In this document: piece after piece, positions 1,141-45,792 of the stretch
Numbering within the stretch: position 1 is the first letter of the stretch
How the letters are laid out: every line of letters begins with the position of its first letter
NCBI RefSeq assembly: GCF_001677475.2
Contig: NZ_CP015229.1
Strand: one strand, 5' to 3'
Source: Escherichia coli
GTDB taxonomy: Bacteria; Pseudomonadota; Gammaproteobacteria; Enterobacterales; Enterobacteriaceae
DNA length: 64,000 bases
Made by a program: the position numbers and the translations under genes
Notes under the pieces: model-generated
The model's input: only the letters and a program-made list of their open reading frames with translations
What the model was told of the DNA's origin: nothing
The model's database searches: none

Positions 1141-1170
1141 AAAAAGCCCCGATGGTAAAAATCGGGGCTG
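1141..1170 (-). terminator. Intrinsic terminator downstream of deaD
   Basis: GC hairpin gccccgatggtaaaaatcggggc followed on the minus strand by a T-run (plus strand aaaaaaa at 1141..1147), 40 nt after the deaD stop. Confidence 0.6.
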
Positions 1171-1211
1171 TATATATTATTTTACAGATTGTGTTCGCTG
1201 TTTAGCGATGA

Positions 1212-3101
1212 TTACGCATCACCACCGAAACGACGACGACCGGTAGAGTCATCACGACGCGGAGCGCGGCCTTCACGACGTTCGCCGCTAAAACGACGAC
1301 CATCACCACGACCACCTTCACGGCGTTCACCGCTGAAGTTACGACCACCTTCACGACGTTCGCCACTGAAACCACGACCACCGCCACGACGCTCACCGCC
1401 AGTATGCGGCTGTGCATCGCCCAGTAACTGCATGTTCATCGGCTTGTTGAGAATGCGAGTGCGCGTAAAGTGTTGCAGCACTTCACCCGGCATACCTTTC
1501 GGCAGTTCGATGGTGGAGTGAGAAGCAAACAGCTTGATGTTACCGATGTAACGGCTGCTGATGTCGCCTTCGTTAGCAATCGCGCCAACGATATGACGAA
1601 CTTCAACACCATCATCGCGGCCCACTTCAATGCGGTACAGCTGCATATCGCCAACATCACGACGTTCACGACGCGGACGATCTTCACGGTCACCACGCGG
1701 GCCACGGTCGTTACGATCGCGCGGACCACGGTCATCACGGTCACGGAATTCACGTTTCGGACGCATCGGCGCATCTGGCGGAACAATCAGAGTACGTTCA
1801 CCCTGTGCCATTTTCAGCAGTGCGGCGGCCAGAGTTTCGAGATCCAGCTCTTCACCTTCTGCCGTCGGCTGAATTTTGCTCAGCAGTGCACGGTATTGAT
1901 CCAGATCGCTGCTTTCCAGCTGCTGCTGTACTTTAGCGGCGAATTTTTCCAGACGACGTTTGCCCAGCAGTTCTGCGTTCGGCAGTTCAACTTCCGGAAT
2001 GGTCAGCTTCATGGTGCGTTCAATGTTACGCAGCAGACGACGCTCACGGTTCTCAACGAACAGCAGCGCACGGCCAGCACGGCCCGCACGACCAGTACGA
2101 CCGATACGGTGAACGTAAGACTCAGAATCCATCGGGATATCGTAGTTAACTACCAGGCTGATACGCTCAACGTCCAGGCCACGGGCCGCAACGTCGGTCG
2201 CAATCAGGATGTCCAGACGACCATCTTTCAGTCGTTCCAGTGTCTGCTCACGCAGCGCCTGGTTCATGTCACCGTTCAGCGCGGCGCTGTTGTAGCCGTT
2301 ACGCTCAAGGGCTTCTGCCACTTCCAGAGTCGCGTTTTTGGTACGAACGAAGATAATCGCCGCATCAAAATCTTCCGCTTCCAGGAAACGTACCAGTGCT
2401 TCGTTTTTACGCATACCCCAGACAGTCCAGTAGCTCTGGCTGATGTCAGGACGGGTAGTCACGCTGGACTGAATGCGCACTTCCTGCGGCTCTTTCATAA
2501 AGCGGCGGGTAATGCGACGAATCGCTTCCGGCATGGTTGCAGAGAACAGAGCGGTCTGATGACCTTCCGGGATCTGCGCCATAATAGTTTCAACGTCTTC
2601 GATGAAGCCCATGCGCAGCATTTCGTCAGCTTCATCCAGAACCAGACCGCTCAGTTTAGAAAGGTCCAGAGTGCCACGTTTCAGGTGATCCAGCAGACGG
2701 CCCGGCGTACCGACAACGATCTGCGGCCCCTGACGCAGGGCGCGTAATTGCACGTCATAACGCTGGCCGCCGTACAGGGCAACCACGTTTACGCCGCGCA
2801 TGTGTTTAGAGAAATCCGTCATTGCCTCAGCAACCTGTACCGCCAGTTCGCGGGTCGGTGCCAACACCAGAATCTGTGGTGCTTTCAGCTCAGGATCAAG
2901 ATTCTGCAGCAGAGGTAAAGAGAATGCTGCAGTTTTTCCGCTCCCCGTCTGGGCCATACCCAGGACGTCGCGGCCATTCAGCAGATGTGGAATACACTCT
3001 GCCTGAATTGGAGATGGTTTTTCGTAACCCAGATCGTTAAGGGCTTCAAGGATAGGAGCCTTCAGGCCCAGATCTGCAAAAGTGGTTTCGAATTCAGCCA
3101 T
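1212..3101 (-). CDS. deaD: ATP-dependent DEAD-box RNA helicase DeaD/CsdA (629 aa)
   Basis: Translation [33 protein letters not shown]... with DEAD-box motifs ([25 protein letters not shown]). Track ORF (651 aa) over-extends; ATG at 3099..3101 gives the 629-aa product. Confidence 0.95.
1230..1420. repeat. Imperfect ~33-nt tandem repeats encoding the Arg/Gly-rich C-terminal tail of DeaD
   Basis: Three copies of cttcacgRcgttcRccRctgaa...acgaccac on the plus strand, giving the peptide repeats [10 protein letters not shown] in DeaD. Confidence 0.6.
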
Positions 3102-3174
3102 GTAGTACGTGTGCCTCAAAATTAATGGCGGCCAGTCTACATAACTCATCATGAAATTGATCAGCAATTTTCAT
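3094..3174 (-). CDS. yrbN: Small protein YrbN (26 aa) overlapping the deaD start
   Basis: Minus-strand ORF ATG(3172..3174) to TGA(3094..3096) translates [26 protein letters not shown]; matches my recollection of the annotated K-12 small protein between nlpI and deaD. Confidence 0.55.
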
Positions 3175-6409: not shown

Positions 6410-6610
6410 TGTAATATCCTTTCTCTTTCTTAGACAGTACCTTACGGCACTGGTGTTAATACCCGATCTTCTGCGCATCCTCGCGACTAATGACAACCCT
6501 AACCCAGCTCTATGTGGGTAAAGCCTCTCATTAGCCGCGCGAACCTCTGCAACGGAAGATCATTCATAGCAACAATACATTAGTTTCCAGTGAATTGCTG
6601 CCGTCAGCTT

Positions 6611-6640
6611 GAAAAAAGGGGCCACTCAGGCCCCCTTTTC
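6611..6640 (-). terminator. rpsO intrinsic terminator (hairpin also usable from the plus strand)
   Basis: ggggccactcaggcccc hairpin flanked by A-run on plus and T-run on minus, 16 nt downstream of the rpsO stop. Confidence 0.7.
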
Positions 6641-6655
6641 TGAAACTCGCAAGAA

Positions 6656-7021
<366 letters not shown>

Positions 7022-8468: not shown

Positions 8469-8505
8469 ATTTCAGGTGGAAGGGCTGTTCACGTTGGCCT
8501 GATAA

Positions 8506-8569
8506 GACGCGCCAGCGTCGCATCAGGCAATCCATGCCGGATGCGGCGTAAACGCCTTATCCCGCATGG
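8506..8569. repeat. REP/BIME-type palindromic units in the infB-rbfA spacer
   Basis: gcctgataagacgcgccagcgtcgcatcaggc and gccggatgcggcgtaaacgccttatcccgcatgg resemble E. coli REP consensus. Confidence 0.6.
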
Positions 8570-13263: not shown

Positions 13264-13329
13264 TAAAAAAAGGGCCTAAAGCCCAGTTATTCTGTAGTCA
13301 GATAACAAAAAACCCCGATAAATCGGGGC
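13264..13329 (-). terminator. Two tandem hairpin/U-tract terminators downstream of metY
   Basis: Minus strand: gggctttaggccc + ttttttt (13264..13283) and ccccgatttatcgggg + tttttt (13305..13329). Confidence 0.6.
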
Positions 13330-13453
13330 TTTATATAACTGAACCCTATAACCGCAACTGCGGTCTGGAGCACTTTCCAGAAGGATTTTTTCAAATCCCA
13401 CTACGAAGGCCGAAGTCTTCACAGTATATTTGAAAAAGGACTCTAAGGGAAAG

Positions 13454-13530
<77 letters not shown>

Positions 13531-17312: not shown

Positions 17313-17399
17313 TGGTACCGAGGACGGGACTTGAACCCGTAAGCCCTATTGGGCACTACCACCTCAAGGTAGCGTGTCTACCAATTCCACCACCTCGGC
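17313..17399 (-). tRNA. leuU: tRNA-Leu (GAG anticodon, 87 nt)
   Basis: Reverse complement reads GCCGAGGTGGTGGAATTGGTAGACACGCTACCTTGAGGTGGTAGTGCCCAATAGGGCTTACGGGTTCAAGTCCCGTCCTCGGTACCA; long variable arm; immediately downstream of secG. Confidence 0.95.
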
Positions 17400-24048: not shown

Positions 24049-24092
24049 GCAAAAAAATACCGACCCGGGTACAAGTCCCAGGTCAGCTACAA
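24049..24092 (-). ncRNA. graL: greA leader terminated by an intrinsic terminator (GraL-like short leader RNA)
   Basis: Minus strand GACCUGGG-ACUUGUA-CCCGGGUC hairpin followed by GGUAUUUUUUU, about 40 nt downstream of the predicted promoter and upstream of the greA start codon; 5' end is inferred. Confidence 0.45.
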
Positions 24093-24099
24093 TTCACAT

Positions 24100-24127
24100 T
24101 TTGATAGTCATTTTACCCTGAAGTTCC
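24100..24127 (-). promoter_or_regulatory. Sigma-E-type promoter (GGAACTT-N16-TCAAA) overlapping a sigma-70 -10 (TAAAAT) upstream of greA
   Basis: Minus strand reads GGAACTT cagggtaaaatgacta TCAAA; a close match to the sigma-E consensus with 16-nt spacing. Confidence 0.55.
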
Positions 24128-24203
24128 CGAAGGGTCATCGTTTACTTTATAGGGCGTTGCGCCGTAGTATGACGGCTCGATTCCAGGTTGTTAGCGCGAG
24201 ATT

Positions 24204-45671: not shown

Positions 45672-45792
45672 GTGCGGCCTGAAAAACAGTGCTGTGCCCT
45701 TGTAACTCATCATAATAATTTACGGCGCAGCCAAGATTTCCCTGGTGTTGGCGCAGTATTCGCGCACCCCGGTCTAGCCGGGGTCATTTTTT
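45672..45792 (+). ncRNA. arcZ: ArcZ (SraH/RyhA) Hfq-dependent small RNA, about 121 nt
   Basis: GTGCGGCCTGAAAAACAGTGCTGTGCCCTTGTAACTCATCATAATAATTTACGGCGCAGCCAAGATTTCCCTGGTGTTGGCGCAGTATTCGCGCACCCCGGTCTAGCCGGGGTCATTTTTT matches my recollection of ArcZ; 3' terminator hairpin plus U-run overlaps the arcB stop codon. Confidence 0.85.

Follow-up and report, generated by a model that had tools for sequence, protein, structure and literature searches.

DEAD-box proteins can carry basic, disordered tails, for which non-specific tethering of RNA and a supporting role in annealing or condensate formation have been reported (PMC10193013, PMC3814787, PMC11260450). In E. coli, these proteins have basic C-terminal extensions, and it has been proposed that such extensions bind RNA non-specifically as secondary sites (PMC1616957). 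DeaD, also called CsdA, is a dimeric DEAD-box helicase of the Hera/CshA type, and we rely on the literature for its ATP-dependent RNA unwinding and the cold-sensitive phenotype of its deletion (PMC1616957, PMC7566566). Its ATP-independent annealing activity probably resides, or is proposed to reside, in the basic C-terminal domain (PMC3590231), and the protein forms foci in cells and droplets or condensates in vitro (PMC7414142, PMC12758526). PMC10193013 and PMC11850223 cite Xu et al. 2017 for the binding or tethering of RNA by the C-terminal regions of CsdA, which are critical for binding, and for the RNA-binding domain as the main RNA anchor. PMC11850223 also describes CsdA lacking the tail but retaining the RRM, with ATPase and unwinding activities still above those of the dimeric core. 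Because this tail-less construct remains active, the tail is dispensable for catalysis in vitro.

The window analysed here is a stretch of 64,000 nt from an E. coli genome, and its deaD/csdA coding sequence occupies positions 1212-3101 on the minus strand (629 aa plus stop; ATG at 3101, TAA at 1212-1214), as identified from the open reading frame listing, Pfam, RefSeq and the PDB. The protein matches five Pfam families. DEAD (PF00270, aa 30-196, E=3e-52) and Helicase_C (PF00271, aa 232-340, E=2.5e-32) make up the helicase core, and DeaD chains of PDB entries 5GJU and 5GI4 match the window protein at E=1e-130 or better, so that the RecA-like core is found by both routes. DeaD_dimer (PF25399, aa 374-443) is followed by the DbpA RNA-binding domain (PF03880, aa 489-558), and 5B88 covers aa 482-564 of the same region. 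The fifth family is DeaD_C (PF12343), the "DeaD helicase C-terminal disordered region", which matches aa 568-629 over profile positions 1-62 of 62 with 45.7 bits against a cut-off of 23.3.

The genomic setting is also that of DeaD. The window reading frames place deaD between mtr and nlpI with pnp nearby, and together with RefSeq features they give the order mtr-deaD-nlpI-pnp, the orthologous position. RefSeq loci of E. coli that are 98-100% identical to the window carry the deaD and mtr annotation, according to Rfam, SraG and the S15 leader come directly after pnp, downstream of deaD, and a hairpin with a T-run resembling an intrinsic terminator lies 3′ of the deaD stop (1145-1169, minus strand). 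Judged by these matches, every DeaD-defining feature that can be tested from sequence is present, and the gene is DeaD itself. The first-pass annotation had named the gene deaD from the sequence alone, a call borne out by the Pfam families and by the annotation of the near-identical loci. Length (629 aa), domain order and genomic neighbours are those of K-12 DeaD, and a 500-nt region of MG1655 is 98.6% identical to the window. The tail DNA differs from K-12 by four substitutions, one of them Gly579Ser and the other three silent third-position changes, with no structural difference.

The region of interest is the Gly/Arg-rich disordered C-terminal tail, encoded at 1215-1409 on the minus strand (aa 565-629, about 65 codons) and attached to the end of the DbpA-type RNA-binding domain (1410-1658, minus strand; aa 482-564), which is nearly invariant across genera. 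The 64 residues from H566 include 19 Arg, 19 Gly and 11 Asp or Glu, with Gly and Arg at about 30% each. Solved DeaD structures span aa 6-210, 218-445 and 482-564 only (5GJU, 5GI4, 5B88), and the tail lies outside all of them. In an AlphaFold2 model of aa 481-629, the RNA-binding domain is folded, while aa 563-629 have no secondary structure and a pLDDT of 40-49. The model thus predicts a disordered tail, as do the Pfam match and the absence of the tail from the solved structures. Because it is missing from those structures and unstructured in the model, the region in question is the known disordered tail of DeaD/CsdA, a curated Pfam family. The discovery value is correspondingly small, the more so as DeaD is among the bacterial helicases that have been studied best.

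Among described tails, those of Mss116p, CYT-19, Dbp2, RhlB and RhlE come closest, in that all are flexible, positively charged extensions past the helicase core, as in DeaD. By analogy, the DeaD tail may work as they do. It differs from them in following folded domains for dimerization and DbpA-type RNA binding. It also consists of a mixed-charge GERREGGR repeat (19 Arg versus 11 Asp or Glu) and not of a purely basic stretch, and there is no sequence homology. Eukaryotic RGG/RG boxes offer a second likeness, sharing the Gly and Arg content, the disorder and the location in an RNA-binding protein. To count as an RGG/RG box, a region needs two or three RGG (or RG) motifs with 0-4 residues between them, under the tri-RGG and di-RGG rules. 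In contrast, the DeaD tail has one RGG triplet (in RRGGGRG) and three or four RG dipeptides. Glu and Phe break up its repeat, and the dipeptides are 9-11 residues apart, with FSGERREG between them. To our knowledge, the arginine methylation that regulates RGG/RG boxes is absent from bacteria. "RG-rich" is therefore a loose label for the DeaD tail, which is not a canonical RGG box.

The tail is repetitive at both the DNA and the peptide level. Tandem Repeats Finder reported a 33-nt period at 1305-1399 (2.9 copies, 77% matches) and a second, overlapping 45-nt period at 1270-1357, and a repeat-family search found three copies at 1270-1312, 1315-1357 and 1348-1390, with identities of 79-88% and spacings of 45 and 33 nt. 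Translation in the deaD frame resolves these periods into head-to-tail, in-frame units with the consensus F-(S/G)-G-E-R-R-E-G-G-R across 1260-1403 on the minus strand. The first of them, U0 (11 aa, 1371-1403), is degenerate. It is followed by U1 (11 aa, 1338-1370), by U2 (1293-1337, a 45-nt unit made of 11 aa at 1305-1337 plus DGRR at 1293-1304) and by U3 (11 aa, 1260-1292). The repeat described in the first-pass annotation is thus present where it was placed. Its three 33-nt copies correspond to the three clear FSGERREG units, U1 to U3; the degenerate fourth unit upstream is additional, and the spacings are 33, 33 and 45 nt, the last not being 33.

This repetition goes beyond what the composition of the tail yields. 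A whole-tail shift statistic was only weakly significant, with 118 of 5000 codon shuffles reaching the observed value; since the tail is of low complexity, the statistic was replaced by tests of local self-match and of exact peptide repeats. The best local DNA self-match scored 28, against 12.6 +/- 2.1 (maximum 22) for 1000 codon shuffles of the tail, none of which reached it. The longest peptide that recurs without any change has 10 aa, where the maximum in 1000 codon shuffles was 8.

The repeat in the DNA, by contrast, is mostly a shadow of the peptide repeat and of codon bias. Identical residues in U1, U2 and U3 use the same codon in 16 of 26 cases, and deaD codon usage alone would give 0.42-0.65 per residue, or about 0.55-0.6 per position. 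Because codon identity between units equals this expectation, nothing points to units that were recently duplicated or homogenised, and we rejected a recent duplication of units on this ground. Codon 579, in U1, reads AGT (Ser) in the window and GGT (Gly) in K-12 and other genera. As other genera read FGG in U1, Ser579 is derived, and Gly579Ser makes U1 read FSG like U2 and U3. All three repeat-internal differences from K-12 bring U1 and U2 of the window closer together. Gene conversion between units was considered and dropped as unneeded; the Ser579 codon, AGT against AGC in U2, fits a single point mutation.

We consider it very probable that the periodicity of 33/45 nt at 1260-1403 reflects, in the coding sequence, a peptide repeat that is old and degenerate and lies in the disordered DeaD/CsdA tail, and this judgement includes the proposals on slippage and RNA tethering made below. 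A different reading would have the repeat kept for a role at the level of the nucleic acid (an mRNA structure, a regulatory element, or an overlapping or antisense gene) and not for the peptide. Two long reading frames do lie open across the tail. One is antisense (1189-1521, plus strand), 110 aa long and rich in Pro, Arg and Ser; the other is Val-rich (71 aa, 1202-1417, minus strand) and lies in another frame of the deaD strand. The first-pass annotation had set both down as spurious antisense frames. Both exist and the Pro/Arg-rich one is antisense, but the Val-rich one shares its strand with deaD. Neither matched any Pfam family. Among the window, K-12 and CFSAN061763, three of the four SNPs are third-position changes that are silent in the deaD frame, and all three alter residues of the Val-rich frame (V/A, V/A, T/I). 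Over the three antisense frames taken together, each of them changes residues in two and is silent in the third. Three database "proteins" (P0001, P0043 and P0113) are frameshifted deaD fragments that continue through the open Val-rich frame. Both alternative frames are by-products of CGT/GGT/GAA-rich coding, because such codons seldom create stops in other frames, and both can be dismissed in annotation. With codon identity between units at the level of codon bias, and with GERREGGR preserved across genera as peptide while length and spacing shift freely, a nucleic-acid-level role is hardly credible.

Tails from other genera bear on the age of this peptide repeat. A search with the 144-aa C-terminus returned mostly gene fragments and few full-length orthologues, and these were used for tail comparison only. 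Fragments labelled Klebsiella, Serratia, Yersinia, Hafnia and others have an RNA-binding domain that hardly varies and, after it, tails that range from 38 to 89 aa, contain 1-4 GERR motifs and differ by many indels. On this sequence comparison, expansion and contraction of the array is a long-running process in the family.

The array also varies within E. coli. The sample consisted of 5,426 complete genomes, with the locus found in 5,425 by a 500-nt query and likewise by a 206-nt query. Variants were first spotted from unusual match spans and then counted with short queries specific to each junction, to which the reference allele gives no match. These queries relied on megablast with an exact 28-mer and K-12-type sequence and therefore miss alleles that differ in size or sit on another background. 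The resulting genome counts are lower bounds for alleles and, since clones inflate them, upper bounds for events. The first-pass annotation had suggested comparing the C-terminal length of DeaD across E. coli genomes, and the lengths do differ (by -33, -78, -132, +12, +15 and +30 nt), contrary to an identical repeat number in all strains. The seven length classes are 585, 603, 618, 629 (reference), 633, 634 and 639 aa, and all are in frame. A non-reference length occurs in at least 231 of the 5,426 genomes (4.3%), with about 96% at the reference length.

Gains involve sub-repeats. The 633-aa allele (158 genomes) carries a 12-nt duplication of CGTGAAGGYGGT (REGG), the duplicated segment being CGTGAAGGTGGT (REGG) at 1344-1355 on the minus strand. 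The 634-aa allele (48 genomes) carries a 15-nt duplication of TGGCGGTGAGCGTCG between two TGGCGGTG octamers (GGERR), and the 639-aa allele (2 genomes) has three copies of this 15-nt unit. The site of this copy-number variation, the unit TGGCGGTGAGCGTCG followed by the second TGGCGGTG, lies at 1379-1401 (minus strand) and shows one, two or three GGERR copies in E. coli. The junction shared by the two alleles was found in 50 genomes, with three copies in 2 of the 50. Many of the genomes with the 15-nt gain are named ST361 or 361, and the two with the 30-nt gain, which share the same 639-aa protein, are isolates from Poland and Canada.

Losses are larger. In the 603-aa allele (21 genomes), 78 nt are missing and U1 is joined to U3 at a perfect identity of 17-18 nt. 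The two copies of this identity, GGCGAACGTCGTGAAGG, lie upstream in U1 (1348-1364) and downstream in U3 (1270-1286), both on the minus strand, and extend over 17 nt in the window and 18 nt in K-12. One unit of 33 nt is lost in the 618-aa allele (one genome, K56-43-un). In the 585-aa allele (one genome, FXCREC035), the whole array of 132 nt is lost between two GCGTCGTG octamers, an upstream microhomology of 8 nt at 1385-1392 and a downstream one at 1253-1260 (both minus strand).

In the alignments, every within-species breakpoint falls at short direct repeats of 6-18 nt. The C-terminal 15 residues are kept in all alleles and all changes are multiples of 3 nt. Junction queries for gains of whole units (two versions of +33, one each of +45 and +78) found none in the 5,426 genomes; the U2-type query for the 33-nt loss and one of the +33 queries aligned to reference alleles over their full length but with mismatches, and had no exact full-length match. 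The gains are thus of 12- and 15-nt sub-repeats, and most variant genomes are of this kind and do not differ by a whole 33-nt unit. The suggestion in the first-pass annotation that the repeat is a site of slippage-driven length variation holds as far as length varies and breakpoints lie in direct repeats, and needs amending in that the changes are mostly in 12- or 15-nt sub-repeats, along with losses of units. With the 15-nt unit at 1-3 copies and losses of 33, 78 and 132 nt, the number of units does differ from strain to strain, as in a coding tandem repeat.

Length variants in a GC-rich repeat might arise as sequencing or assembly artefacts, leaving an E. coli tail that is effectively invariant. 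Two of the alleles (-33 and -132) are singletons that could be assembly errors, and the database does hold clearly frameshifted deaD fragments (P0120 in addition to the three named above). However, the 12-nt and 15-nt gains, the 78-nt loss and the 30-nt gain each turn up in more than one complete genome, and these genomes differ in laboratory, host and country of origin. No variant departs from an exact multiple of 3 nt, and the junctions at direct repeats are clean, while random errors would mostly cause frameshifts. We regard a purely artefactual origin as very unlikely, and length differences of -44 to +10 aa in deaD among E. coli strains are better read as natural in-frame alleles than as annotation errors.

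At the other extreme, the tail could be a hypermutable contingency locus, its repeat number often switched to tune or toggle DeaD. The one, two or three copies of the 15-nt unit, and the identical 639-aa protein in the Polish and Canadian isolates, would fit such a locus. Contingency loci switch through frameshifting or promoter spacing, yet the C-terminus is intact in all seven alleles here, whose lengths differ by multiples of 3 nt, and with unit sizes that are multiples of three on/off switching is impossible. Long perfect tracts are also missing; the longest identity between units is 17 nt (18 nt in K-12), and the units are 67-88% identical. The predominance of a single length and the one recurring protein accession for each variant sampled more than once suggest inheritance rather than frequent switching. 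Frequent switching at this locus is, in our judgement, highly improbable. Because the counts reflect clonal inheritance, the independent events may be as few as six or seven.

Bacterial coding minisatellites (VNTRs) are a closer likeness, sharing the in-frame copy-number polymorphism of a 15-nt unit at 1-3 copies and the block losses of 33 and 78 nt. The DeaD tail differs from them in its very few copies, its degenerate units, its polymorphism of about 4%, its location in a protein that is not surface-exposed or engaged in host interaction, and the lack of any sign of rapid switching. It acts as a weak coding minisatellite and not as a contingency locus, because there is no frameshifting and there are no long perfect tracts.

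The indels probably result from replication slippage (slipped-strand mispairing) or from short-homology recombination between the direct repeats. Selection would purge out-of-frame products, and length changes would be tolerated because the tail presumably works through bulk properties, charge and flexibility, and not through a fixed fold. Against slippage, units of 67-88% identity with perfect runs of at most 17 nt are poor substrates, and about 96% of genomes are unchanged. The larger deletions (-78 and -33) might instead stem from RecA-dependent unequal homologous exchange. In the 78-nt deletion, the join between U1 and U3 coincides exactly with the longest identity that the two units share, and a spacing of 78 nt is long for simple slippage. 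Efficient RecA pairing usually takes roughly 20-30 nt of identity, but the identities here are 6-18 nt, and the small duplications resemble classical slippage. Slippage and RecA-dependent unequal exchange look the same in the alleles themselves, and we hold the latter to be possible but rather unlikely. It concerns the mechanism only and is compatible with the main reading given above.

As to function, the tail may be a basic and flexible tether, lending the DbpA-type RNA-binding domain next to it additional, non-specific affinity for RNA. It probably also has a share in the annealing and the condensate formation that have been described for DeaD. We infer this specific contribution of aa 565-629 from studies that concern larger C-terminal regions. 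A stronger proposal would make tail length a tuned trait, with lineage alleles that alter RNA tethering, the condensate threshold or ribosome biogenesis in the cold and so adapt clones to their niches; we find this improbable. The alleles named under that proposal are (GGERR)2-3 in an ST361-like clone, a gain of EGGR in about 3% of genomes and the 26-aa deletion.

A literature search for earlier reports of deaD tail polymorphism turned up none that was relevant, in a weak search given the ambiguity of "dead" as a term. The tail itself being already known, the allelic series is possibly a small, perhaps unreported, population-genetic addition. The natural series from 585 to 639 aa provides ready tail-length variants for work on RNA binding, annealing, condensates and growth in the cold.

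Codon 579 of deaD (window 1365-1367), in the Gly/Arg-rich tail of the RNA helicase, reads AGT (Ser) in the window and GGT (Gly) in K-12, most of the sampled E. coli and other genera. As a result of this serine, tail repeat unit U1 reads FSG, matching U2 and U3. In the complete-genome search, the exact 206-nt tail allele of the window was also found in E. coli strain 104, which came from chicken. Across the 500-nt deaD region, the closest complete genome is 99.6% identical to the window, and K-12 is 98.6% identical.

Three copies of the 15-nt tail unit TGGCGGTGAGCGTCG are present in genomes L010 (NZ_CP146585.1) and L011 (NZ_CM143727.1), which encode one identical 639-aa DeaD protein, WP_338779341.1. 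One of the two isolates was recovered from urine in Poland and the other from food in Canada. In searches of 5,426 complete E. coli genomes with the 3′ part of deaD, one genome gave no hit, one match fell on a record labelled as a plasmid, and one record beyond FXCREC035, the carrier of a 132-nt tail deletion, had query coverage below 80%.

The tail is not the only part of deaD with low complexity. A second such stretch (1659-1772, minus strand) is a linker rich in Arg, Asp and Pro that joins the dimerization domain to the RNA-binding domain and contains a 24-nt direct repeat (1696-1719 and 1720-1743, minus strand; copies 79% identical). In an alignment of DeaD proteins between genera, the linker is rich in indels. 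Four database protein entries, P0001, P0043, P0113 and P0120, are deaD fragments with a frameshift, and these run through open Val-rich or Arg-rich off-frames of the linker or tail before they regain frame or end. The frameshifts are probably sequencing errors, and the entries illustrate how open off-frames can mask frameshifts from gene callers.

At the 3′ end of the gene, 43 nt past the deaD stop, a GC-rich hairpin with a 9-bp stem runs into TTTTTTCTGT (1145-1169, minus strand). It lies upstream of mtr, which starts at 1058. This hairpin is likely the intrinsic terminator of deaD; its palindrome was called on the plus strand as well. At the 5′ end, the mechanical ORF of deaD has 651 aa, with 22 extra codons upstream that begin at a TTG at 3167 (3102-3167, minus strand). 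The RefSeq start in matching genomes is the ATG at 3101, giving a 1890-nt CDS and a 629-aa product.

Elsewhere in the window, RNA elements called at the Rfam gathering threshold were SraG (6468-6639), the S15 leader (6869-6983), naRNA4 (8496-8566), the rimP leader (13265-13365), two tRNAs (13457-13530 and 17316-17399), the greA leader (24052-24173) and ArcZ (45672-45779). These matches fit the E. coli chromosomal region running mtr-deaD-nlpI-pnp-rpsO, then greA and then arcZ.
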